Shown here piece after piece: positions 40,604-63,801 of a stretch of DNA of 64,000 bases (position 1 is the first letter of the stretch; each line of letters opens with the position of its first letter). Position numbers and translations under genes: made by a program. Source of the DNA: a virus; the IMG/VR virus record IMGVR_UViG_3300032249_000480, positions 40,787 through 104,786 of that record. One strand, 5' to 3'. The notes under the pieces were generated by a model. It was not told the origin of the DNA. It searched no databases and was given only the letters and a program-made list of their open reading frames with translations.

Positions 40604-40838
40604 TAGTTTAAACATTACCGTAGATCAGGTTAATCATCCACGTCATTACACAACTGATCCTTCTGGTGTTGAGTGCATTGAAATAACACGTCACAGAAAC
40701 TTTAATATTGGTAATGCTTTTAAGTATTTATGGAGAGCAGGACTAAAGGATGAGGCTAAAACAATTCAAGATCTTGAAAAGGCTATTTTTTATATTAAAG
40801 ATGAAATTAATAGACTAGAAGGAAAGTATGTCAACTGA
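40596..40838 (+). CDS. DUF3310-like protein
   Basis: VNHPRHY...ECIE...GNAFKYLWRAGLK...DLEKAIFY. Confidence 0.85.
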   Translation: MSDSLNITVDQVNHPRHYTTDPSGVECIEITRHRNFNIGNAFKYLWRAGLKDEAKTIQDLEKAIFYIKDEINRLEGKYVN

Positions 40839-47065: not shown

Positions 47066-47118
47066 TGTACTGCCTACGGGGGTACACTAACTTATTCGCT
47101 TGAAAGGGGAATAATATG
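47066..47118 (+). promoter_or_regulatory. ROSE-like RNA thermometer in hsp20 5' UTR
   Basis: UACG-capped hairpin followed by UUAUUCGCUU pairing with AGGGGAAUAA, which contains the SD. Confidence 0.6.
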
Positions 47119-47529
47119 ATGAACGATCCATGGGCCATTTTTAATGACCCTTTTTTTATTGGGTTTAATAGAAACCTAACACAACTAAACAATGTATATA
47201 AAACAAATAACCAATCCTATCCTCCATATGATCTTCTTAAACTAGATGAAGACACATATGTTTTGTCTTTAGCGGTTGCTGGATTTTCTAAAGAAGACAT
47301 TGATGTATCTGTAGACAATGGATCTCTTGTTATTAAAGGAGAGACTGTAGAAGTTACTGATGCTGAAGTGGTTCACAAGGGTATTGCTAATCGTAAGTTT
47401 ACTCGTACATTTGCTCTTGGTGAATACATGGAAGTAGTTGGAGCAGAACTAAAAGACGGTATGTTGACAATTAAGATTGATCGTATCGTTCCTGAAGAAA
47501 AGAAACCAAAAACAATTAAGATAAAGTAG
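47116..47529 (+). CDS. hsp20: Small heat shock protein Hsp20 (IbpA-like)
   Basis: YPPYD, AVAGF, HKGIANRKFTRTF, A.LKDGML.I, PEEKKPKTIKIK. Confidence 0.95.
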   Translation: MMNDPWAIFNDPFFIGFNRNLTQLNNVYKTNNQSYPPYDLLKLDEDTYVLSLAVAGFSKEDIDVSVDNGSLVIKGETVEVTDAEVVHKGIANRKFTRTFALGEYMEVVGAELKDGMLTIKIDRIVPEEKKPKTIKIK

Positions 47530-47963: not shown

Positions 47964-48596
47964 ATGGCAATTAAAGGATCAGTAGAAGCAATCATTGAAG
48001 TTGCAAAAAAAGAAGTTGGGACAATTGAAGGTCCAAAAGATAATGAAACAAAGTATGGTAAGTGGACTGGTATGAATTTTCAACCATGGTGTCAATCATT
48101 TGTTTCTTGGTGTGCATTTACATCAGGACTAGACCCAAAGAAATATCCAAAGTCTGCATCAACAGTCGCAGCATCTGATTGGTTTAAAAAGAATAATCGT
48201 TGGGCAGATGCACGTAATGATGATCCAACTCCAGGAGATTGGATTTATTTTGATTTTCCAGAAGATGGTGTTAATAGAATTTCTCATGTTGGTATTTGCA
48301 TTAAGAACAATGGAGATGGAACCATTCAAGTTATTGAAGGAAACACTTCTGGAACTGCAAAGGGGGATCAGAGAAACGGCGGAATGTGCGTTGAGAAGAC
48401 TCGTGCATATGTAAAGAATAATGGAAAGAAGTTAATTAATGGTGTTGTTGCTTGGGGTCGCCCAGTTTATGCTGGTGAAGAAAATGTTCAATTACTAAAC
48501 AAGTTAGCAGCACCTGCTAAGTCTACATCTGAAACTGCTACTAAGAAGGCTGCTAAGAAGACATCTGGCAGCGGTAAAGTTAGTCAAGTAAAGTAA
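47964..48596 (+). CDS. CHAP-domain endolysin/amidase
   Basis: PWCQSFVSW, PGDWIYF, SHVGI, IEGNT. Confidence 0.88.
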   Translation: MAIKGSVEAIIEVAKKEVGTIEGPKDNETKYGKWTGMNFQPWCQSFVSWCAFTSGLDPKKYPKSASTVAASDWFKKNNRWADARNDDPTPGDWIYFDFPEDGVNRISHVGICIKNNGDGTIQVIEGNTSGTAKGDQRNGGMCVEKTRAYVKNNGKKLINGVVAWGRPVYAGEENVQLLNKLAAPAKSTSETATKKAAKKTSGSGKVSQVK

Positions 48597-48797
48597 ATGG
48601 AATCAACAAAGAGAACATTGCTTAAAACAGCAAGTTGGGAAACTTTTCACCTTGTTGGTGTAGCAGGAGTAATTTATTTATTTACTGGTGAATGGGAATA
48701 CGCAAGCCTTGGAGCATTACTATACATTGGTTGGGAAGCACTTGGATACTTTCTTCATGAAAGAGTATGGGCAAAGTTTGGTAAAAAAATTAAATGA
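48597..48797 (+). CDS. DUF2061-like membrane protein
   Basis: MESTKRTLLKTASW...YFLHERVW. Confidence 0.8.
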   Translation: MESTKRTLLKTASWETFHLVGVAGVIYLFTGEWEYASLGALLYIGWEALGYFLHERVWAKFGKKIK

Positions 48798-49426
48798 GCA
48801 ATGTTCCAGATAATATTTACATAGATCATATAAAAAAAATTGGAAAAGATGTTAAAAATATAAATGTTTTTGAAAATTTTTTAAATGATGAAGATTATAA
48901 TTATCTGTATGAAGAATGTTTAAATTCAGAATGGTCTGAAAATTACAGGCAAAATCTTAGAAAAGATAAAACAATTTTAAGCAATAACGCAAAACAAATA
49001 TTTAAAAATGTTGCAAATATTTTAAGTAATAAAATAAAAGAAATTTATAATGTAGATGTTTCAATATCAAGTGAACCATTTTTAATAAGATGGGATATGG
49101 GTTCTGAAATGGGCGAACATATTGACGATTTTTCTGTTTTTCATTATCATTTTGCTGCTATTTTGTATTTAAATGATAACTACTCTGGAGGAGAAATATG
49201 CTTTCCAGATTATAACCTTACAATTAAACCAAAAGGAAACTCTTTAGTTTTATTTCCTGGCAATAAATATTATTCTCATGAAGTATTAAAAAATACATCT
49301 GGAGAAAGATACACTATGCCAATGTGGTTTAAGTTAAATGATTCTGATTTTCAAGGAACTGGAACTGCATTTAACCTTATAGATATAAACGATTATAAAT
49401 ATAATAATTGGGAAAACAAAATATAG
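48794..49426 (+). CDS. Prolyl-4-hydroxylase-like 2OG-Fe(II) oxygenase
   Basis: HID...ILYLNDNYSGGE...HEV...GERY. Confidence 0.88.
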   Translation: MSNVPDNIYIDHIKKIGKDVKNINVFENFLNDEDYNYLYEECLNSEWSENYRQNLRKDKTILSNNAKQIFKNVANILSNKIKEIYNVDVSISSEPFLIRWDMGSEMGEHIDDFSVFHYHFAAILYLNDNYSGGEICFPDYNLTIKPKGNSLVLFPGNKYYSHEVLKNTSGERYTMPMWFKLNDSDFQGTGTAFNLIDINDYKYNNWENKI

Positions 49427-49776: not shown

Positions 49777-50034
49777 ATGACTAAGTTAATGACAGAAGAA
49801 ACCTTAGAACTTAAAGAATGGCAATTAAAGGCAACAGATAGATGTGATTCTTGTAATGCAGAAGCATTAGTTCAGGTTACTGGAATTGATGGCTCATTAA
49901 TGTTTTGTGGTCATCACTATAATAAAATCATGGATAATCCAGAAGGATACAAAAAAATGATGTCTTTTATGATTAGTATTATTGATGAACGTGATAAATT
50001 AATTGAAAATAAAGCAAAAGGAAAAGATTACTAA
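49777..50034 (+). CDS. Hypothetical Zn-binding protein
   Basis: DRCDSC...LMFCGHH. Confidence 0.7.
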   Translation: MTKLMTEETLELKEWQLKATDRCDSCNAEALVQVTGIDGSLMFCGHHYNKIMDNPEGYKKMMSFMISIIDERDKLIENKAKGKDY

Positions 50035-50441
50035 TGTACGAATATCATGTTAAATCTATTACAAATGTAGTAGATGGGGATACTATTGATGTTGATATTG
50101 ATTTAGGATTTGATATTTCATTTAGTTCAAGAGTTAGGCTGGCTGGTATTGATACACCAGAATCTAGAACAACTAACAAGGCTGAAAAAGTTCTTGGTCT
50201 TGAGTCAAAAGATTATTTAAAGAAAAAACTAAAAGATGCAAAGTCTGTTATTATTAAAACTGAAAAAATGGATTCATCTGAAAAGTATGGTCGTATTCTT
50301 GGCTGGCTTTACATTAATGGAGATACCGTTTCAGTAAATGATCACATGATTAATGATGGCTATGCTTGGGGATATCTTGGTGAAACTAAAGTTAAAGATT
50401 TTGAAGCACTAGCAAAAGTAAGAGCAAAAGTTAAAAAATGA
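50034..50441 (+). CDS. Thermonuclease (SNase-like)
   Basis: VVDGDTI, VRLAGIDTPE, KYGRILG. Confidence 0.9.
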   Translation: MYEYHVKSITNVVDGDTIDVDIDLGFDISFSSRVRLAGIDTPESRTTNKAEKVLGLESKDYLKKKLKDAKSVIIKTEKMDSSEKYGRILGWLYINGDTVSVNDHMINDGYAWGYLGETKVKDFEALAKVRAKVKK

Positions 50442-51199
50442 TTATTCAAATTATTGGTCTTCCAGGTTCTGGAAAAACAGAACTAGCAAAGGCACTTAAA
50501 GAACGTATTAACGCTATTCATCTTAATGCAGATGAAGTTCGTGCAACAGTTAACTCAGACTTAGGGTTTAGTCCAGACGATAGACTTGAGCAGGCACGAC
50601 GTATGGGAGAAATGGCAAGACTAATTTCAAAGCAGGGTATTGCTCCAGTAATCGTTGACTTTGTTTGCCCTACAGACTTAACTCGTGCAGCATTTGGAAA
50701 GCCAGACATTTTGGTATTCATGAACACGATTGAAGAAGGAAGATTTGAAGATACTAACAAGATGTTTGAAATGCCAACAAACTATGACATTGCTTTTATA
50801 AGCCATGAATGGGATGCAAATGAAAAAGCATCTGTAATCATTAATCAGTTTAGCCTACATGATTGGTCTGCACCTACAACTCTTATGCTGGGTAGGTACC
50901 AGCCATGGCACGAAGGCCACCACGCCCTTTATAAGGAGGCTGGTAAGAGAACTGACCAAGTTCTTCTTGGAGTCCGTAATACCTATAACACAAGTGAAAA
51001 GGATCCACTTAAGTTTGATCAGGTAAAAGAATATATTGCCAAAGATGAATTTATGGATGGAGCATTAGTATTAAGATTACCTAACATTACCAATATTGTT
51101 TATGGTCGTGATGTAGGATATAAAATTGAGCAAGTAGATTTGGGGGCAGATATTCATGCTATTTCGGCTACTGAAAAACGCAAGCAACTTGGTCTTTAA
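50438..51199 (+). CDS. Adenylylsulfate kinase (CysC-like) fused to HxGH nucleotidyltransferase domain
   Basis: GLPGSGKT, LNADEVR...DLGFSPDDR..ARRMGE (CysC-like); GRYQPWHEGH and ISAT (HIGH superfamily). Confidence 0.82.
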   Translation: MIIQIIGLPGSGKTELAKALKERINAIHLNADEVRATVNSDLGFSPDDRLEQARRMGEMARLISKQGIAPVIVDFVCPTDLTRAAFGKPDILVFMNTIEEGRFEDTNKMFEMPTNYDIAFISHEWDANEKASVIINQFSLHDWSAPTTLMLGRYQPWHEGHHALYKEAGKRTDQVLLGVRNTYNTSEKDPLKFDQVKEYIAKDEFMDGALVLRLPNITNIVYGRDVGYKIEQVDLGADIHAISATEKRKQLGL

Positions 51200-51279
51200 A
51201 CAAATAGAAAAGTCTGGGGAAGTCATTAATGCTGCAGATGAAAGATTAATAGCATCAACATTTGAGGAAGAAATAGATA

Positions 51280-51489
51280 ATGAAAGTTACTAGATCAAGA
51301 TCATTTGTTAAAGCATTAAGTTATCGTATATGGGGCACACTTTCATCATTTGCTGTTGCCTATGTTATTACTAAAAATGCTACACTTTCAGGAGCAATTG
51401 CATTTTGGGAAACTGTAGTTAAAATATTTATCTATTATGCACATGAACGTGGTTGGAATTATATTCAGTGGGGAAGAAAAAATGGATGA
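51280..51489 (+). CDS. DUF2061-like membrane protein (second copy)
   Basis: RSFVKALSYR...YYAHERGW..IQWG. Confidence 0.82.
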   Translation: MKVTRSRSFVKALSYRIWGTLSSFAVAYVITKNATLSGAIAFWETVVKIFIYYAHERGWNYIQWGRKNG

Positions 51490-54172: not shown

Positions 54173-54412
54173 ATGGCACTTGGCTATACAGATGAAATGC
54201 GTAAGGCTTTTCATGCAATCCCAGCACCTAAAGGTTTTGGTGTTGATTTAATTGATAATACTTATTTTATTACAATTCGTATTGATGAAAAAGCATTTCT
54301 TTATTTAAATCATGATCAAAAAATGGAAGCATTTGAATATGTTATTAAAGTTCAAAAGGCTTTAGAGGCTTCAGGGGCTGTTGTTCAAGTTGTTAGAAAA
54401 CCATTAAAGTAA
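54173..54412 (+). CDS. Hypothetical protein
   Basis: TAATG-coupled to the glycosyltransferase. Confidence 0.65.
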   Translation: MALGYTDEMRKAFHAIPAPKGFGVDLIDNTYFITIRIDEKAFLYLNHDQKMEAFEYVIKVQKALEASGAVVQVVRKPLK

Positions 54413-55329
54413 TGTCAATATTTATTTCTGTTGCAAGTTATCGTGATCCACATCTTCAACTAACACTTAAAAGTGCTGTTGAAAATGCAAATAATCCTGC
54501 AGGTTTATTCTTTGGTATTGTTAATCAAGATACTGCTAGGAATGAAGTTGATTATTCCTTTTTGCCAGATTATTCTGTAATTAAAATGCATCCAAGAAAT
54601 GCAAAAGGTGTTGGCTATGCAAGAAGCAAGGCAATGTCTTTATACAATGGAGAAGATTATTTTTTACAGGTTGATTCTCATACTCAGTTTTCAAAAGACT
54701 GGGATTTAAAATCCATAAAACAATTAAAGACTGCACAGGAAATTGCAGGACATAAAAAAGTTATAATGTCCTGCTATCCTGGTCCTTATAGTTTAGATAA
54801 TAATCAGGTATTCATACATACAATATCTACAGAAGAACATCCTGTAGAGCCAATGAAGCATATTGCTAAACTAAGAGTTGACGATCAGTGGTCTGCAATC
54901 AGGGTTCCAATGGATAGTCCAAATTCTGAAAGACCAGAACTTTCTAATACAGTTCTTGGAGGATATATTTTTGCTACTGGTAATATTGTAAATGAAATTC
55001 CATATGATGAAGAAATAAGTTTTATGGGTGAAGAAATTTGTTTTGCAATGAGGGCTTGGACAAGGGGATGGGACATATATTCACCATCAATACCAATTGT
55101 TTATCATTTTTATAGAAGGCCAGGATATCCTAAAGTATGGTCTGATGATGTAGTTAGAGAACAGAACTGGGATCAACTTCAAGAAATATCAAAAGAAAAA
55201 CAAAGAAAAGTTTTATGTGGTATTGAACAAGGAATCATGGGAGCAGGATCTATTAGAACTATAAAAGATTATGAAGAATTTATAGGTTATGATTTTGAAA
55301 AAATATATAACAGGTTGACAAACAAATGA
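54412..55329 (+). CDS. GT60-like (Skp1 hydroxyproline GlcNAc-transferase-like) glycosyltransferase
   Basis: IFISVASYRDP, GVGYAR, YFLQVDSHTQF..DWD, FMGEE...RAWTRGWDIYSP...YHFY. Confidence 0.82.
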   Translation: MSIFISVASYRDPHLQLTLKSAVENANNPAGLFFGIVNQDTARNEVDYSFLPDYSVIKMHPRNAKGVGYARSKAMSLYNGEDYFLQVDSHTQFSKDWDLKSIKQLKTAQEIAGHKKVIMSCYPGPYSLDNNQVFIHTISTEEHPVEPMKHIAKLRVDDQWSAIRVPMDSPNSERPELSNTVLGGYIFATGNIVNEIPYDEEISFMGEEICFAMRAWTRGWDIYSPSIPIVYHFYRRPGYPKVWSDDVVREQNWDQLQEISKEKQRKVLCGIEQGIMGAGSIRTIKDYEEFIGYDFEKIYNRLTNK

Positions 55330-55366
55330 TATACATGTACAATATATATATAGAGATAGGGTAAAA

Positions 55367-55735
55367 ATGCTAACAGCACTTATTGTTACAATAATCCTTG
55401 CTTTGTTATTTTTTGCAAAAGGTTTACAATTGGCTATGCGACTAAACAAATTAAAAGAATTAGTTGCAATACAGGAAGTAAAAATAGAGGCTAACTCTGA
55501 TCCAGTTAAAGAAGACTTTTTAAAATTTGTGTCTGATTCTCGTGAATGGGCATTTGAATATATAGAAGAAGTTCAAATTGCATTAAACAATTTTAAAGAA
55601 AAAGTTGAACCACAGATTGAATATTTTGATAAATACGGAGATGTTCTTTCTAACCAAAGGCCAGATTATGAATCAATGAAAAAAATTTCTCAGGCATATA
55701 AAGAACTAATACTTATATTGCCAGAGAATAAATAG
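55367..55735 (+). CDS. Membrane-anchored hypothetical protein
   Basis: N-terminal TM; TTGACA-17-TACAAT promoter at 55315-55343. Confidence 0.65.
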   Translation: MLTALIVTIILALLFFAKGLQLAMRLNKLKELVAIQEVKIEANSDPVKEDFLKFVSDSREWAFEYIEEVQIALNNFKEKVEPQIEYFDKYGDVLSNQRPDYESMKKISQAYKELILILPENK

Positions 55736-55744
55736 GGGGATAAA

Positions 55745-55903
55745 ATGAAAGACATTATACTATCAACACTAACAGGTTTTGGATGTGGCGTTGTTTTCGC
55801 AGCATTCAAATTGCCAGTACCAGCACCACCAGTTTTTGCGGGAGTCGCAGGAATTATTGGTTTATGGATTGGCTTCACAATACTAACACGAGTTATATCC
55901 TAG
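55745..55903 (+). CDS. XapX-like (DUF1427) small membrane protein (absent from ORF track)
   Basis: MKDIILSTLTGFGCGVVFAAFKLPVPAPPVFAGVAGIIGLWIG. Confidence 0.75.
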   Translation: MKDIILSTLTGFGCGVVFAAFKLPVPAPPVFAGVAGIIGLWIGFTILTRVIS

Positions 55904-55912
55904 GAGGAAATA

Positions 55913-56179
55913 ATGAATAAAGCACAACTACAAGCACTACTAGCATCATACGGACGATCAGTTCTTGGTGCAGGTCTTGCACTATACATGTCTGGGGTAA
56001 CAGACCCTAAGACACTGGCATATTCTCTAATTGCTGCTCTTGCACCAGTTGCATTAAGAGCAATTAATCCAAACGACACAGCATTTGGTCGTTTGCCAGA
56101 TGCCTCAACAGTTGAAGCAGCAGTAAAGAATGTTAAGGTAAAGAAGGCTCCTGCAAAGAAAGCAGCAGCAAAGAAGTAA
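55913..56179 (+). CDS. Small membrane protein, holin candidate, with Lys/Ala tail
   Basis: AGGAGG SD; two hydrophobic helices; NPNDTAFG; KKAPAKKAAAKK. Confidence 0.55.
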   Translation: MNKAQLQALLASYGRSVLGAGLALYMSGVTDPKTLAYSLIAALAPVALRAINPNDTAFGRLPDASTVEAAVKNVKVKKAPAKKAAAKK

Positions 56180-56192
56180 TTTAATTACTTAT

Positions 56193-56226
56193 AAGATAGC
56201 CAGTCCACAACGGGCTGGCTTTTCTT
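56193..56226. terminator. Bidirectional terminator between convergent arms
   Basis: agccagtcc-acaac-gggctggct with A/T-rich flanks. Confidence 0.8.
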
Positions 56227-57259
56227 ATTTATTCATAATATATTCGTAACGCTCTTTAAGATTTTTAGGATCAAAGTTAAAACATCCTAATCTAAAGGCT
56301 TCTTTTTTTGCTACTTCTTGATCATTGCTATTAGCATAATTATCAACTAATTCAGCCAACTTAATAATATCAGGCTCATAAACATCAACAACAACTCTAG
56401 CCTTAAATTCTCCTATTTTATTAGCAGGCACCACCCATTCCTCTGGAAGCACGGTATTGTTAGGAGAAATATCAGTCATAAACACAGGAAGACCACTCAT
56501 AAGAGCCTCATTCATAGGCAAACAAAGTCCTCCATAGCGTCTAGGAAGGATTAGAGCGTCAAACCCACTGTATAGGTCCTCTTGATTCTCTAAGTCCCTA
56601 CAATCAATTGTAATGCGTGGATCTTTTATCTCAATATCTAGTGGTTCTTGTGTTCTTATTACCAATTCATAATCAGCCTTGGAATACCTTAACATTTCTA
56701 TAACACTCTCAGTGCCGTTTCTATCTTTTGTTGCTGCCGTACCCAAAATATGCAAAAATCTTTTATGTTTTTTAGATAAATTATTTTCTCTAGCATTTTT
56801 AAAATTGTCTGGATTTGTTGGTGGAGGCAGATGAGTTAGTTTAGTTTGATGACCAAATACTCTTGCAACTTCATCAAAACCCCAAAGACTAGGACTAAGC
56901 AGATGATATGCCAATGGCTTATATTGATCCATCATATTTTCAAAAAATTCATAATTATATTGTTGAAAAGTTTTAACACCATAGCGCCCAGCAAGTGCAA
57001 CAAAATCTTTATGATAAAAAGTTTCGCATGTTAAAATAGCATCTAAACCTTGAATAAATCTTTTGCATGAATTAATATCTGGATAACCATATTGATCTTG
57101 AACGTTATAACCTTCATACCATTCTGGATGTTGTTTTTTCTTTTTAAATTCTGAAAAATCAATAAGCAAAACTTTCTCAGGATTCAACATGTGTACAAGT
57201 TCCCTTGTTTGATTACCAAGTCCACTATTGTCTGATCTTGCTATAATTCCTAATCTCAT
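56225..57259 (-). CDS. GT-B (GT4-like) glycosyltransferase
   Basis: MRLGIIARSDNSGLG; ILPRRYGGLCLPMNEALMSGLPVF. Confidence 0.85.
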   Translation of the reverse strand: MRLGIIARSDNSGLGNQTRELVHMLNPEKVLLIDFSEFKKKKQHPEWYEGYNVQDQYGYPDINSCKRFIQGLDAILTCETFYHKDFVALAGRYGVKTFQQYNYEFFENMMDQYKPLAYHLLSPSLWGFDEVARVFGHQTKLTHLPPPTNPDNFKNARENNLSKKHKRFLHILGTAATKDRNGTESVIEMLRYSKADYELVIRTQEPLDIEIKDPRITIDCRDLENQEDLYSGFDALILPRRYGGLCLPMNEALMSGLPVFMTDISPNNTVLPEEWVVPANKIGEFKARVVVDVYEPDIIKLAELVDNYANSNDQEVAKKEAFRLGCFNFDPKNLKERYEYIMNK

Positions 57260-58017
57260 TCTGTATACCCCCATGCTTGATCATCTGCAGTAAACTTTCT
57301 TGTTCCTGCTCTGCCATCCAAATGTGCAGATCTTTTAATATTTCCTTCTGGATGATATATGTGTAGTTTGTGCATTTCCCAACCCATTTGAGAAAATTTG
57401 TTATATGGAAGTATATGATCTTGCACTGCTCCATGAAAAGTATCTTCAATAAATTCCCTATCTGGCATTATAGGCAAAATAATATCTCTATAATAGTCAA
57501 CAGTTGTAAGGTGTGGACGCTGACTCCACTGGGCTGTTTCTAAAAATTCTTCATTTAATTTAAACATTAAATGTTTGTGTGGATCAGGAATTGATGCTTC
57601 AAAATGAAATCTAATTGTTTTGCCTTGTCCTCTTTCAATAAAATTAATACATTTATCCCAATCAATTGGCTGATCTGTTACAAGTGGAGCATCTCCTTCA
57701 ACATAAAGCATTAATGGTGTTTTAATCATATTTATTGTTTTAGCCATCATAGTAGTTTGATGTGAAAAACGATCAAAAATTATAGGAAGAAGTTTTGTGT
57801 CTTCATGTAATGCTTTCCATAATATCCTATTTTTATATTCATCATAATCATTTTTTCTATTTTGTCTTTCATCTCTTAGTCCATCAATTTGTATAATAAT
57901 TTCATTTGTTGGAAAATGGTATCTAATTGACCTTAATGTTTCATCAAGAATATGTGTATCAGGATGACTAGGAAGAACAGATGTTACTACAACAATTGTT
58001 ACATCATCTTTGTTCAT
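57256..58017 (-). CDS. GT-A fold glycosyltransferase-like protein
   Basis: VTIVVVTS, IIQIDG, TPLMLYVEGD, HLDGR. Confidence 0.6.
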   Translation of the reverse strand: MNKDDVTIVVVTSVLPSHPDTHILDETLRSIRYHFPTNEIIIQIDGLRDERQNRKNDYDEYKNRILWKALHEDTKLLPIIFDRFSHQTTMMAKTINMIKTPLMLYVEGDAPLVTDQPIDWDKCINFIERGQGKTIRFHFEASIPDPHKHLMFKLNEEFLETAQWSQRPHLTTVDYYRDIILPIMPDREFIEDTFHGAVQDHILPYNKFSQMGWEMHKLHIYHPEGNIKRSAHLDGRAGTRKFTADDQAWGYTE

Positions 58018-58864
58018 TTAGGTCCTCCATTATTTCATTAAATAAATCTCTTTTGAATTTAATCCACCAAGATACTGCCTGATGCATATTGTTTGGATAG
58101 TTACTATATAAGTTTACCATTAAACTTGATAAATCTTCCCAATAATTTACAGATACTATTGGCATTGTTTGCTTAAATAATGGACCAAAATAGTTTGGCT
58201 TTTCGTCTTTTGGTGTTGTGCTATCAACTATTGGATAACATAATAATTCCAAGGCTTCGTAAAATCTAAAAGAATCAAGAACCACTATTCCAGAAGGGCA
58301 GGGTATAAATTTAGATCTAGCCATATTACTATAATAAACATCTGGGATATCTCCTTGTGTAAAGCCTTCAGTAAATTTATATATTGTGTTAGGTATATTT
58401 GGCAACACTTTTGATAGTTGCTTCCTTCTATTATGATTTATTTGACCGCTAAAATATAAATCAATGTCTTTTGTTTTATAGGTTGGAGCGTATTCTTTAA
58501 AATGTTGAGGAGCACCTTGTGGAAGTTTTTTATACTTTTCATGTTTATCATGTGGATATTGTATCCATATTGATGCATTACGATGAGTTATCTTATCTGC
58601 ATCAAACAGCCCTGCTTCATCACCCATTACAAAAAGAACTACTCTTCCTATATTGTTTAATTCAGCAGATATCTTTTCTTCTAAACCTGCATTAGATGGT
58701 CCAGGTATTGCAACAAATGCTTTATCACAATATTCTAATGATTTTACATTAACTTGTTCAATATTTTTTCTTTCACAAAATTCTTTTAAAATGCCATAAT
58801 CCCATTTATTTGCAGCAGAATCTGTTCCTTCAGCAGAATAAAGGTATAGTTTAAATTGGCTCAT
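58004..58864 (-). CDS. Exostosin (GT47)-like glycosyltransferase
   Basis: LYFSGQ...RR...SKFIPCPSG...SFRFYEALELLCYPIV. Confidence 0.7.
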   Translation of the reverse strand: MSQFKLYLYSAEGTDSAANKWDYGILKEFCERKNIEQVNVKSLEYCDKAFVAIPGPSNAGLEEKISAELNNIGRVVLFVMGDEAGLFDADKITHRNASIWIQYPHDKHEKYKKLPQGAPQHFKEYAPTYKTKDIDLYFSGQINHNRRKQLSKVLPNIPNTIYKFTEGFTQGDIPDVYYSNMARSKFIPCPSGIVVLDSFRFYEALELLCYPIVDSTTPKDEKPNYFGPLFKQTMPIVSVNYWEDLSSLMVNLYSNYPNNMHQAVSWWIKFKRDLFNEIMEDLNEQR

Positions 58865-59564
58865 AAAGGAAGTGAACCTCATGTTGATAATCTAAATAAG
58901 TTTCCTTATATCCCATGCCCTTAATCCACTGTCTAAGATCATATAGGTATTCATTCCATTGCTGTATCATAAATTCTGGATGACCAGATAGCCAAATCTT
59001 TGGTTTAAATTCTCTCATTACTTTTTCTGCACCACCCAACACACGCCACTCACTGCCCTCTACGTCTAAAGAAATTGCGGTAGGTGGTTTAATACCATGA
59101 TCATAAACACAAGAGTCTATAGTAATTTGACCATAGTTAGCACCCTCAAGATATAGTTCTTTAAATCCATGAGCAGCCTCAATTGTTTGATTAGCCTCTG
59201 GTGGAAATTCGCTATAGTAAATACGAGCAAGATCATTAACTTTGTCAGATGCAAATCCAGGAATACATGCTAATGGCATTTCTAAATTGTTTGCTTCCCA
59301 TAACAAAGGAAAATGAGACCAAACTTTTGGATTAGGTTCAAACAAAACAACTTCAGCACCCCACATTTGGCACAAAGCAGGGAACTCTCCTTCTTCTGCT
59401 CCAACATAGTAAACAACATCTCCATTGCCAAGTACTTCATGCATAGATTTAAGTCTAGGTTTTTCCCACCCATGATCTTGATACCAATCTGGCCTTACTG
59501 CACGATGTTCTGGCAACACTATTTCAAATTCTCCATTGATCAGAGACTTAATCATTTCAGTCAT
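58851..59564 (-). CDS. FkbM-family SAM methyltransferase
   Basis: YYVGAEEG, FEPNP, SLDVEGSEWRVLGG. Confidence 0.85.
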   Translation of the reverse strand: MTEMIKSLINGEFEIVLPEHRAVRPDWYQDHGWEKPRLKSMHEVLGNGDVVYYVGAEEGEFPALCQMWGAEVVLFEPNPKVWSHFPLLWEANNLEMPLACIPGFASDKVNDLARIYYSEFPPEANQTIEAAHGFKELYLEGANYGQITIDSCVYDHGIKPPTAISLDVEGSEWRVLGGAEKVMREFKPKIWLSGHPEFMIQQWNEYLYDLRQWIKGMGYKETYLDYQHEVHFLYEPI

Positions 59565-60514
59565 ATCTTTAACTCCTTTAATATAGTTGCCCATCTGTCT
59601 ACATATGTATGCTCATCTATTGTTCTATCATGTCCAGCAAGGCGAATAGACTCTCTTTCTTCGTTATGCTCTAAGTAATAGTCAATTTTATTTTTTAGAT
59701 CTGTAAGATCACCATGCTTGTAGAATACAACTTCTTCATCAGTAAACAAATCATGAAGCCCATCAATGTCAGGGTAGATAGTAAATCCACCACGACCAGT
59801 AGACTCAAACAATCTATCACTTGTATAGTAAGGATAGTTAAACCCTATGTTAAGGCTATCTCCAATTGCAATTTTGCTACGTGCATAGATTCTGTTTAAA
59901 TCATTACCACGCACAGTTCCAGTATCACCATCTCCACCCACATGAAGAAATCTTTTACCATAAGTTGCTCTTAAGAAATCTATTAATTGTGGACGGTATG
60001 GATATTCATGATGATAACGCTTACTACCAACAAAGATTACATCATAGTCAAAAGACTCTCCATCGTAATGGTCATGTAGATAGCACTCTTTACCAAACAC
60101 ACCTGCTGGCAAAAAATGTCCTTTAACATTTGTATTTTCATTAAACCAATCAGACATTAATTTATCTACTGTAAAGAAATGACCAATTGTTTTATAAAAA
60201 TTATCTTTTTCTAAATCTTTTTGACGATCTAAACCAAACCACAAATCAAGATGATAAGTCATTGTTGGTATATTTAGTTCTTTGAGTTGCTCAAGAACAG
60301 TATCCATGCTTATATTTCCTGTTGTTTGCCAGCCATGTGTGTGTACCCAGACAAATAGATCGCTATCTTTTGCAAATCTCAGTATTGTGTCTGTACTTTC
60401 TTGTGCTTCTTGTAGTTTAACTACTTTGTGCCCTAAAGATTCTAGGCTTTTAGCATGATGGTTTTCACTACTATAAGATACCTGAAAGTTACCAAGAAAT
60501 GTTATTGTTGCCAT
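59561..60514 (-). CDS. CgeB-like GT-B glycosyltransferase
   Basis: YDVIFVGS, IYARSKIAIG, SDRLFESTGRGGF, HTYVDR. Confidence 0.82.
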   Translation of the reverse strand: MATITFLGNFQVSYSSENHHAKSLESLGHKVVKLQEAQESTDTILRFAKDSDLFVWVHTHGWQTTGNISMDTVLEQLKELNIPTMTYHLDLWFGLDRQKDLEKDNFYKTIGHFFTVDKLMSDWFNENTNVKGHFLPAGVFGKECYLHDHYDGESFDYDVIFVGSKRYHHEYPYRPQLIDFLRATYGKRFLHVGGDGDTGTVRGNDLNRIYARSKIAIGDSLNIGFNYPYYTSDRLFESTGRGGFTIYPDIDGLHDLFTDEEVVFYKHGDLTDLKNKIDYYLEHNEERESIRLAGHDRTIDEHTYVDRWATILKELKI

Positions 60515-60537
60515 TAAGCGTTAGTCAATCTTTGCAT
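60514..60537 (-). CDS. Leaderless 7-codon upstream ORF (MQRLTNA)
   Basis: ATG 7 nt after TGATATAAT; its TAA overlaps the ATG of the next gene. Confidence 0.5.
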   Translation of the reverse strand: MQRLTNA

Positions 60538-60572
60538 ATTAATGATTATATCAGGTTTTCAATATTATATTA

Positions 60573-61184
60573 TTATGTATGAGTAATCCAATTTACAACA
60601 GCAAACTTTTCTCCAGATTCAACTGGTAGCGCTTCGTGTGCAAATAAAAAATTTGAAGGGAAAATTACCATAGAGTTTGCTTTTGGCTTAAATTTTATTC
60701 CAATATATTTAAAGTCAATTTCTCCTCCAGAGTAATCGTCATTTAAATATATAAGATAGGATATAACTCTATTATTATGTGACCCCCAATCATTATGAAA
60801 ATTAAACTTTTGACCACCTCTATATCTTAAAAGTGTGTTTGTTTTTTCTGGATCATTCATATATGGTCCTTGAGGATATTCTTTGGTGTACATGTCAATT
60901 CCAGTTTTTATATGAACATTAAAAGAGACTGCTAGTTTGCCTATAATTTGATAAAAAGGATCTTGACTTATTAAAGATTTTGGATTCATACCTAAAGAAT
61001 CATTGTTTCTATATTTAATATTAATTTTATCATTATCTTTATATCCTACTTTTGCTGTTTCCCATTTTGCAGTTGATTCTGGATTATTACTTATTTCATA
61101 AACATCTTTCATTATTGTTTCATAATTGTCTAGAATATCAGGTATTACCATTAGTCCTGGGAAAATTATATTATTATTAGTCAT
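60573..61184 (-). CDS. Prolyl-4-hydroxylase-like 2OG-Fe(II) oxygenase
   Basis: LLRY...HND...RVISYLIYLNDDYSGGE...HEALPVESGEK. Confidence 0.88.
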   Translation of the reverse strand: MTNNNIIFPGLMVIPDILDNYETIMKDVYEISNNPESTAKWETAKVGYKDNDKINIKYRNNDSLGMNPKSLISQDPFYQIIGKLAVSFNVHIKTGIDMYTKEYPQGPYMNDPEKTNTLLRYRGGQKFNFHNDWGSHNNRVISYLIYLNDDYSGGEIDFKYIGIKFKPKANSMVIFPSNFLFAHEALPVESGEKFAVVNWITHT

Positions 61185-62144: not shown

Positions 62145-62357
62145 TTATTCCTCTCGCTTCCAGTGTAGGTAAGATTTTATATAAATTGCAGCGTATGCTA
62201 ATGCCATTGCTATAAAACCATATTGTTTAGTTGTTAAAGCATATGCAACCCAAAGGAATTCGTTAACAAACAAAATAAGCCATCCCCATATTGTTTTACG
62301 ACCTACAAGAAATATTCCTGTAACGCCAATAGCGGCTAATACCCAAGACCACATCAT
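62145..62357 (-). CDS. Small PnuC-like membrane protein
   Basis: Three hydrophobic segments; RKTIWGW...W..YA...QYG...Y..W. Confidence 0.5.
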   Translation of the reverse strand: MMWSWVLAAIGVTGIFLVGRKTIWGWLILFVNEFLWVAYALTTKQYGFIAMALAYAAIYIKSYLHWKREE

Positions 62358-63270: not shown

Positions 63271-63801
63271 CTAAAGAATAACCTTGCGTTCCAAAGCCTT
63301 ATTGAATAACTCATGGCATTGTCTAAGATTTTTAGATTTAACAATTTCAAGGATTTGATCATACTGAGGATGTAACTTAGAAGAGAGTAAAAATGTATCT
63401 GGAAAAAAATTATTAGGATTAAGAGTAACTGGCCTATACTCAATGTCAAACAAATCAGACACATATTTAACGATTTTTTCAGTTTTATTTATGTCATCAA
63501 AATCAAATATAACATTGACATTTTTTATAACATGTTCAAGAAACTCGTTATAGGTTTTTATCTTAGAATCAATCATATTATTTATAATATTAATATCTTC
63601 ATCTGGACTAAGATTAAATGCTGCAGATGAGGCAATACAACCAATAGGCTCTCTGATAATGCTTATCATTGGGTATTGTGTAATGTAGACGTTGTGCACT
63701 CTAGTGACTTTAACATTAAGAGTTTTTCCTAGAAGTGTACAGATATGTACTGTGCCAGAGCGTTGATGAGTATTTACTACTAACTCTTTCCAAGGCTGCA
63801 T
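63271..63801 (-). CDS. Sulfotransferase-like protein
   Basis: VVNTHQRSGT (5'-phosphosulfate loop-like) and IIREPIGCIAS (3'-phosphate motif-like); leaderless start. Confidence 0.55.
   Translation of the reverse strand: MQPWKELVVNTHQRSGTVHICTLLGKTLNVKVTRVHNVYITQYPMISIIREPIGCIASSAAFNLSPDEDINIINNMIDSKIKTYNEFLEHVIKNVNVIFDFDDINKTEKIVKYVSDLFDIEYRPVTLNPNNFFPDTFLLSSKLHPQYDQILEIVKSKNLRQCHELFNKALERKVIL

Follow-up and report, generated by a model that had tools for sequence, protein, structure and literature searches.

What might a phage do with a 253-residue protein that joins a shortened kinase of the adenosine 5′-phosphosulfate (APS) kinase type to a minimal nucleotidyltransferase? The question is raised by IMG/VR virus record IMGVR_UViG_3300032249_000480, of which we analyzed positions 40,787 to 104,786. 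The record is a complete phage sequence of 104,786 bp with direct terminal repeats; this stretch of 64,000 nucleotides (the window) forms its right-hand 64 kb and has a GC content of ~34%. The open reading frame (ORF) of the fusion occupies 50438–51199 on the plus strand, starts with ATG, and shares 4 nt with the SNase gene that precedes it. Its N-terminal domain (residues 1–140, 50438–50857) is assigned from PF01583 and fold as a lidless APS-kinase-like P-loop kinase, and its C-terminal domain (residues 141–253 plus the stop codon, 50858–51199) from motifs and fold as a minimal HxGH nucleotidyltransferase. A first-pass annotation of the window, made from the letters and their translations, had described the fusion correctly, as Pfam and motif searches confirmed, and had proposed that it converts sulfate to APS and on to 3′-phosphoadenosine 5′-phosphosulfate (PAPS), feeding a sulfotransferase-like gene at 63271. 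Comparative genomics supports this proposal, in which sulfurylase activity is the step that we infer. Judging from gene context, we consider it probable (roughly 70%) that the fusion is a miniature bifunctional PAPS synthase, with a C-domain that would be an undescribed small ATP sulfurylase.

The fusion is not a chance ORF: it has 6953 homologs in a set of 5.8 billion proteins, many of them 85–91% identical and encoded on environmental contigs of up to 120 kb, phrog_10255 (“kinase”) matches it end to end (E 5e-62), and its AlphaFold2 model is confident (pLDDT 94.2). A protein library clustered at 50% contains 93 clusters that match it at E < 1e-30. Full-length homologs with 37–42% identity are found in cultured phages, namely Xylella phages Sano, Salvo and Bacata, Stenotrophomonas phages DLP6, Suzuki and Bhz60, Xanthomonas phages, and Clavibacter phage 33, while the Ralstonia jumbo phages phiRSL1 and RsoM2USA carry the kinase half only. 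The two domains also occur fused in the reverse order (P0161, P0167), as overlapping split genes, and as stand-alone halves; the reverse-order fusions and the overlapping genes indicate that kinase and transferase are functionally coupled. None of the curated NCBIfam and Pfam models names the family, and literature searches, which covered phage fusions of APS kinase to nucleotidyltransferase, non-orthologous ATP sulfurylases and a phiRSL1 sulfotransferase, found no description of it.

The kinase half matches the APS kinase family PF01583 over residues 2–85 (E 8.4e-15; 55.6 bits, cut-off 21.1), covering only positions 4–91 of the 152 in the model, and scores 59.6 bits with the APS kinase equivalog TIGR00455, far under the cut-off of 138.7. 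APS kinases filled all top ranks in Foldseek (best E 6e-9). In VIA fold searches with the full-length model, which covered residues 1–141, the best match was Mycobacterium tuberculosis CysC (4rfv; Z 18.5, root-mean-square deviation (rmsd) 1.6 Å over 127 residues). Five APS kinases scored Z 16.4–18.5 (16.4–17.7 apart from 4rfv), the next family being gluconate kinase (Z 15.2), followed by shikimate kinases (Z about 13). The fold is thus nearly identical to that of canonical CysC (PF01583, TIGR00455; 4rfv, 1m7g, 2yvu). In an alignment of 46 full-length family members, 33–88% identical to the window fusion, the P-loop GLPGSGKT (residues 7–14) is invariant; G7, G12, K13 and R35 are invariant residues, and D32, F44, R49, R83, T106, F110 and P113 are nearly so. 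Compared to three canonical CysC proteins, the P-loop and the DxxR, LGFSxxDR and FExP motifs are retained, and conservation extends to D32 (the second Asp of DGD), R35, F44, R49 and R55, which align with their CysC counterparts; the retained Arg and Phe residues presumably bind the phosphosulfate of APS and enclose its adenine from both sides. DGD itself reads NAD, with Asn for the first Asp, and EN reads EQ. The RDPKGLY lid, noted as missing in the first-pass annotation, corresponds to a gap of 16 residues relative to the three canonical proteins, and two smaller segments are missing as well. Homology in sequence and modeled fold gives good support for an APS-kinase-like enzyme in this half, one whose substrate would be an adenylyl anion, rather than for a canonical CysC.

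The transferase half carries the motifs GRYQPWHEGH (152–161), YGRDVGY (222–228) and ISATEKR (242–248), in agreement with its initial description as an HxGH nucleotidyltransferase. Across the 46 sequences, G152, R153, Q155, H158, H161, G223, R224, G227 and R248 are invariant, and R180, P215, Y222, V226, Y228 and S243 nearly so. The invariance of the catalytic HxGH and ISxTxxR motifs and of extra Arg residues argues against a non-catalytic domain. The match to CTP_transf_like is weak and below cut-off (E 0.002). Among NCBIfam models, the closest are nicotinamide mononucleotide (NMN) adenylyltransferases (NMNATs) of the NadM type, all far below cut-off (NF002243, 25.3 against 127; TIGR01527, 20.6 against 181.2). 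With a profile of the C-domain family, NadM (E 2.5e-7) and archaeal NMNAT (E 5e-6) were detected among Protein Data Bank (PDB) sequences, the match being limited to the first half of the domain (positions 5–60 of 110 against 2qjt and 1f9a). Common to the C-domain and the NadM-type and archaeal enzymes (TIGR01527, NF002243; 1f9a, 1ej2, 2qjt) are GRxQPxHxGH, the strand that follows it, an NPF-type loop and the terminal SxTxxR. In contrast to them, the C-domain has two invariant motifs of its own, PNITN and YGRDVGY, together with an Arg at which strand 2 ends; its alignment is confined to the first ~55 positions of the profile, and it is ~50 residues shorter, the loss falling in the second half. 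The helix against which the nicotinamide ring stacks in archaeal NMNAT presumably belongs to the lost region. By sequence, the C-domain appears to be a cut-down descendant of NadM-type NMNATs.

Folded alone, the C-domain is predicted with confidence (pLDDT 93.1) as a minimal Rossmann-like domain of 115 residues with three DSSP strands and four helices. A VIA search of 48,161 chains returned archaeal NMNAT 1f9a (Z 9.3), NadM 2qjt (Z 9.2), phosphopantetheine adenylyltransferase (PPAT) 4nah (Z 9.0) and NadM 2qjo (Z 8.3), followed at rank 5 by the Thermus thermophilus ATP sulfurylase 1v47_B (Z 8.1, rmsd 3.1), which aligned 111 of the 115 residues, the most of any top row. The modeled fold is compatible with that of an ATP sulfurylase. 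At the level of fold the C-domain is effectively tied between NMNAT, PPAT and Sat, but by sequence its relatives are the NadM-type NMNATs, not Sat. Since NMNAT chemistry is the same, with an oxyanion attacking the α-phosphate of ATP and pyrophosphate being released, sulfate could plausibly have taken the place of NMN as the acceptor. Neither fold nor sequence is enough to settle what the C-domain adenylylates, and it is gene context that decides.

PPAT 4nah ties with the best fold match, which brings in a pair resembling coenzyme A (CoA) synthase, in which the C-domain would be a PPAT and the kinase half would 3′-phosphorylate dephospho-CoA. Dephospho-CoA kinase, like APS kinase, places a phosphate on the 3′-OH of an adenylyl compound, and in eukaryotes it is joined to PPAT in COASY. 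However, dephospho-CoA kinases match the N-domain at Z 10–11.3, compared to 16–18.5 for APS kinases, no CoA-pathway genes were present in any context examined, and all informative contexts concern sulfur. We consider this explanation highly improbable.

Several of these contexts are cellular. In three loci from alphaproteobacterial metagenome-assembled genomes (MAGs; L124, L127, L106), DUF2061, a family to which we return below, is followed by two overlapping genes that correspond to a split form of the fusion: a 167-residue kinase, 42% identical to the N-terminal half of the window protein, and a 117-residue transferase, 46% identical to its C-terminal half. The pair ends an operon comprising Sulfotransfer_3, CbiX, CobA, sulfite reductase (SiR), CysH and DUF2061, and the flanking genes for RNase E, PBP1A and PrfB show that the operon is chromosomal and cellular. 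Among 11 species genomes of this order (0.6–1.2 Mb), the transferase was found in 10, each time ~0.9 kb from the sole PAPS_reduct-family gene (CysH), while CysD was found in none and Sat in one. The operon covers siroheme synthesis, sulfite reduction, APS/PAPS reduction, an APS-kinase-like step and a sulfotransferase, leaving sulfate adenylylation as its sole gap, and the adenylyltransferase is the one unassigned enzyme in it. Just upstream of the operon, L124:13-1976 contains a fragment of Arylsulfotran_2 (a PAPS-independent type) and a 332-residue Sulfotransfer_3 protein; this ~1-Mb genome holds a compact “sulfur island”.

A second group of genomes points in the same direction. Of 61 Pelagibacterales-like genomes, from the order that contains the Pelagibacteraceae MAG G140, 15 carry a single transferase homolog of ~136 residues (E about 1e-34) on large chromosomal contigs. 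The homolog is present in 5 of the 6 genomes that are positive for AprB, compared to 10 of the 55 that are negative (Fisher p 0.0026). Sat was found in one of the 61 and in none of the six AprB-positive genomes. AprBA, an enzyme of dissimilatory sulfur metabolism, needs an ATP sulfurylase partner in either direction of the pathway. No more than 2 kb separates the homolog from aprB in two of the genomes (G163, G173). Locus L199 carries paired mini-kinase and mini-transferase genes, next to which AprB-AprA and a membrane protein are encoded in divergent orientation; a gene of the inositol-monophosphatase family (CysQ-like) is nearby. A CysQ-like gene also lies beside the transferase at L196–L198. 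One further cellular homolog, a 259-residue fusion in a 5.9-Mb alphaproteobacterium (G048), sits amid EamA, ZnuABC and unknown proteins, a context that is uninformative.

These genomes also bear on the suggestion that the fusion combines a real APS kinase with a nucleotidyltransferase that has some other job. PAPS would then be made from host APS, and the C-domain would either adenylylate a small anion or metabolite other than sulfate or have a regulatory or nucleotide-binding role. The C-domain has no sequence link to any ATP sulfurylase and is far smaller than any known one, and kinase-only homologs occur in phages whose hosts can make APS (such as phiRSL1 and RsoM2USA) and also as many stand-alone proteins, all of which fits this suggestion. 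On the other hand, neither the cys operon of the order with 11 genomes nor the genomes with AprBA would then have any enzyme that makes APS from sulfate or uses it, and the suggestion fits poorly with the invariant HxGH, ISxTxxR and extra Arg residues and with the occurrence of both fusion orders. We therefore find it doubtful, while giving it some weight.

The cassette in the window contains a second gene, at 51280–51489 on the plus strand, 80 nt past the fusion, for a DUF2061 protein of 69 residues predicted to span the membrane with two helices (PF09834 E 5.7e-17, 62.3 bits). A diverged second copy of 66 residues lies at 48597–48797, also on the plus strand (E 3.2e-11, 43.9 bits). Both had been named in the first-pass annotation and both exceed the PF09834 cut-off of 23.1 bits. 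We examined 80 viral loci carrying fusion homologs, 71 of them with at least 57% identity. In ~65 of these 71, DUF2061 starts 0–110 nt after the fusion, sometimes as two tandem copies, and in many related loci a second copy is found at varying distances. SNase, CHAP, Hsp20 and other neighbors change position relative to the cassette among related phages. The constancy of DUF2061 while the neighbors shuffle shows that it forms a conserved two-gene cassette with the fusion. DUF2061 is missing from the nine loci with distant (44–47% identical) fusion homologs, and the genes downstream of the fusion homolog in Sano and DLP6 are not DUF2061.

The cellular distribution of DUF2061 links this partner to sulfur as well. 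A scan of one genome per prokaryotic species gave at least 575 loci, of which 80 were kept; 33 of the 80 contain Pfam-confirmed sulfate-assimilation genes, in almost every case as direct neighbors encoded on the same strand. The arrangements include DUF2061-CysH-CysD-CysN-SiR in Sulfurimonas, Arcobacteraceae, Melioribacteraceae, Lutibacter and Flavobacteriaceae, CysD-CysN/C-DUF2061 in Nanopelagicaceae, CysJ-CysI-DUF2061-CobA in Carboxylicivirga and relatives, and CysC-DUF2061 in an archaeon. In a Thiomicrorhabdus MAG (L164:831-1550), directly after CysN, DUF2061 (E 6e-17) and APS_kinase (E 3e-25) are joined in one polypeptide of 239 residues. The P-loop of this protein reads GLPLSGKK and its DGD is lost; the kinase part may be inactive or regulatory. 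Thus, the constant partner of the fusion belongs to sulfate activation and reduction rather than to NAD metabolism. The DUF2061 family may have roles beyond sulfate activation. At L108, L111, L152 and similar loci from Pelagibacteraceae/HIMB59 MAGs, DUF2061 is the C-terminal part of a protein of ~142 residues that neighbors DUF3108 and DUF502, with no cys genes nearby. DUF2061 genes are reported to be iron- or Fur-responsive in Caulobacter and Shewanella (PMC3751524, PMC12442407), and in the literature that we searched the family is mentioned just as an iron/Fur-regulated hypothetical protein. An ESM Atlas search with DUF2061 returned DUF2061 clusters alone, and a search for longer, fused DUF2061 proteins gave nothing useful.

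The alternative offered in the first-pass annotation was salvage of nicotinamide adenine dinucleotide (NAD). In such a scheme, a NadR-like kinase half would phosphorylate nicotinamide riboside taken up through a mini-PnuC, and NAD would be made from NMN by the NMNAT-like domain. The NMNAT ancestry of the C-domain gives this idea substance, with NadM-type and archaeal NMNATs as its closest relatives in both sequence and fold, and so does the “PnuC-like gene” of the window, at 62145–62357 on the minus strand. The latter encodes a half-size, three-helix semi-PnuC of 70 residues that matches PF04973 just above cut-off (E 2.5e-6) over the first 69 of 175 model positions. Mini-PnuC is present in just 9 of the 80 viral loci. 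The kinase half does not resemble Nrk or the ribosylnicotinamide kinase (RNK) of NadR, human nicotinamide riboside kinase (Nrk1) scoring Z 10.5 against 16–18.5 for APS kinases, and it shares two conserved Arg residues and a Phe with canonical CysC. Furthermore, the NMNAT profile covers only half of a domain that has lost ~50 residues, DUF2061 is a cys-operon gene, and the cellular homologs lie in cys, apr and cysQ contexts, among which other NAD genes were not searched for; unlike those of NadM-type NMNATs, the contexts of the C-domain concern sulfur metabolism. The contexts and the APS-kinase-like N-domain make NAD salvage unlikely, a clear step below the suggestion of a transferase with another job.

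A PAPS synthase would call for a consumer of PAPS, and the gene at 63271–63801 (minus strand, 176 residues) can be recognized from its family profile as a minimal sulfotransferase homolog, as had been suspected. It has no Pfam hit, no single Pfam family reaching threshold. In an alignment with 13 relatives (A3), R14 and G16 of an xRSG loop and R50, P52 and S58 of an RxP....S motif are invariant, and the profile matches the solved sulfotransferases SULT1C3 (E 3e-9) and SULT1B1 (E 1.3e-7) across both motifs. Aligned with hhalign, the family matched the phage Sulfotransfer_2 profile with 87.7% probability. It is the only copy in the 104.8-kb genome, and a homolog lies directly upstream of the fusion at one other locus (L043). 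From these sequence comparisons, the product is a likely PAPS consumer in this phage.

Other phages show the association on a larger scale. Four complete or near-complete phages of 121–222 kb (G001–G004, the records of L074, L076, L072 and L075), with fusions 44–47% identical to that of the window, contain 10, 10, 5 and 7 Sulfotransfer_2 matches, respectively, often in tandem arrays; the family is absent from all of 14 control genomes. Each of the four also encodes an inorganic pyrophosphatase, located immediately upstream of the fusion in G002, and a search of the four genomes found no Sat and no CysD/CysH-family gene. This is an unusually heavy viral investment in sulfation. Sulfotransfer_2, Sulfotransfer_3 or a sulfotransferase of the window type was also found in G005–G009, G013–G015, G022–G024, G027 and DLP6, while no sulfotransferase was detected with the profiles used in several fragmentary fusion-bearing records. 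Among 50,697 phage records, 51 have a Sulfotransfer_2 homolog and 17 a fusion or kinase homolog, and two phages, DLP6 and phiRSL1, belong to both sets, far more than expected by chance (hypergeometric p about 6e-7, counted by records); in phiRSL1 the kinase homolog and the Sulfotransfer_2 gene are ~5 kb apart. The first-pass annotation had named co-occurrence with sulfotransferases in phages as a check of its proposal, and the four rich genomes and this overlap bear it out. Taking together the cys and apr loci and the phages rich in sulfotransferase and pyrophosphatase, with no Sat or CysD found, a miniature PAPS synthase is the simplest reading.

In the mechanism that we propose, the C-domain would adenylylate sulfate (ATP + sulfate → APS + pyrophosphate), and the N-domain would phosphorylate the 3′-OH of APS, yielding PAPS and pulling the unfavorable first step forward, as happens in the PAPS synthases of animals. 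The sulfotransferase at 63271–63801 would then consume PAPS, probably on a glycan or protein made by neighboring glycosylation genes. DUF2061 would be a conserved small membrane partner of sulfate activation that could anchor the enzyme or serve sulfate entry.

Several considerations weigh against a miniature PAPS synthase. The architecture, folds, conserved motifs and gene associations are observations, from which we infer the activities of both domains, sulfate as the substrate of the C-domain, and the role of DUF2061. The C-domain profile found no ATP sulfurylase among the PDB sequences, NMNATs being its sole detectable sequence relatives, and PF01747, the Sat family, was unmatched both in the Pfam scan (E up to 0.1) and in a six-frame search of the whole phage genome. 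The match to the Sat fold is middling and effectively level with those to NMNAT and PPAT (a spread of 1.2 Z), and Foldseek gave weak matches for the C-domain (best E 6e-3), so that the fold check proposed in the first-pass annotation came out clearly for the kinase half and weakly for this one. Deletion of the 16-residue lid segment, together with the change of the first DGD Asp to Asn, may mean that the activity or the substrate of the kinase differs. The CysH of the alphaproteobacterial operon carries CC...CxxC cysteines, which we take to mark the Fe-S, APS-reductase type; the kinase would then be unneeded for assimilation there and would serve sulfation, APS being required either way. The cellular genomes are MAGs and single-amplified genomes whose completeness was not reported, and the absence of Sat and CysD is to be read as “not found”. 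Four sulfotransferase profiles found no match in three complete fusion-bearing genomes (Xylella phage Sano, G010 and G016). Finally, mini-PnuC, of the nicotinamide-riboside transporter family, abuts the fusion-DUF2061 cassette in six loci (L003, L015, L032, L034, L037, L053), an adjacency that fits NAD salvage better.

The domain composition proposed here has precedents. The bifunctional PAPS synthases (human PAPSS1/2, 1x6v) and the Sat-CysC of Aquifex aeolicus (2gks) likewise combine APS kinase and HxGH-superfamily adenylyltransferase domains in one chain, the animal PAPSS in the same kinase-then-transferase order as in the window, and the fusion kinase superposes on both structures (Z 17.3 for each). 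However, those proteins have about 530–630 residues compared to 253, and the fusion is without the PUA-like domain, the PF01747 match and the kinase lid. With Sat-type ATP sulfurylases (PF01747; 1v47, 1j70, 4dnx) the C-domain shares the superfamily, an HxxH-type motif, a GRD loop (a putative equivalence) and an SxTxxR-type motif, and its proposed reaction and its operon position are those of Sat. It differs in having no detectable sequence similarity to Sat, in being about one third of its size (about 350–400 residues), and in lacking the N-terminal PUA-like domain and domains I and III.

Upstream of the cassette, the window encodes Hsp20 (47116–47529), a CHAP-domain peptidase (47964–48596), a 2-oxoglutarate (2OG) oxygenase (48794–49426), and the SNase-family nuclease (50034–50441) whose stop overlaps the start of the fusion. 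A promoter and terminator scan around the cassette gave no signal above chance. Further downstream, a glycosylation cluster at 54412–61184 comprises a GT60-type GlcNAc transferase (PF11397, E 5e-58), GT4-like, GT47/RXYLT1-like and CgeB-like glycosyltransferases, an FkbM methyltransferase and another 2OG-Fe(II) oxygenase. This cluster may make the acceptor for the phage sulfotransferase.

Two enzyme types are known to activate sulfate, Sat and CysDN. We lean, by a modest degree, towards the broader view that the C-domain and its stand-alone relatives of 117–136 residues constitute a third, unrecognized class of ATP sulfurylase, derived from NMNAT by deletion, which would take the place of Sat and CysDN in marine Alphaproteobacteria with streamlined genomes, among them the SAR11 relatives that carry AprBA, and in many phages, with DUF2061 as its dedicated membrane partner. 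If true, the existence of a sulfurylase a third as large as Sat would alter the way in which genomes are interpreted for sulfur metabolism, and there would be no pathway hole in streamlined marine bacteria that have CysH and SiR or AprBA but apparently “no ATP sulfurylase”. A single-chain PAPS synthase of 253 residues would also be useful for enzymatic or in-cell regeneration of PAPS. For the phages, it would mean a self-contained sulfation toolkit of activation, pyrophosphatase and up to ten sulfotransferases, implying sulfated phage or host surface molecules during infection.

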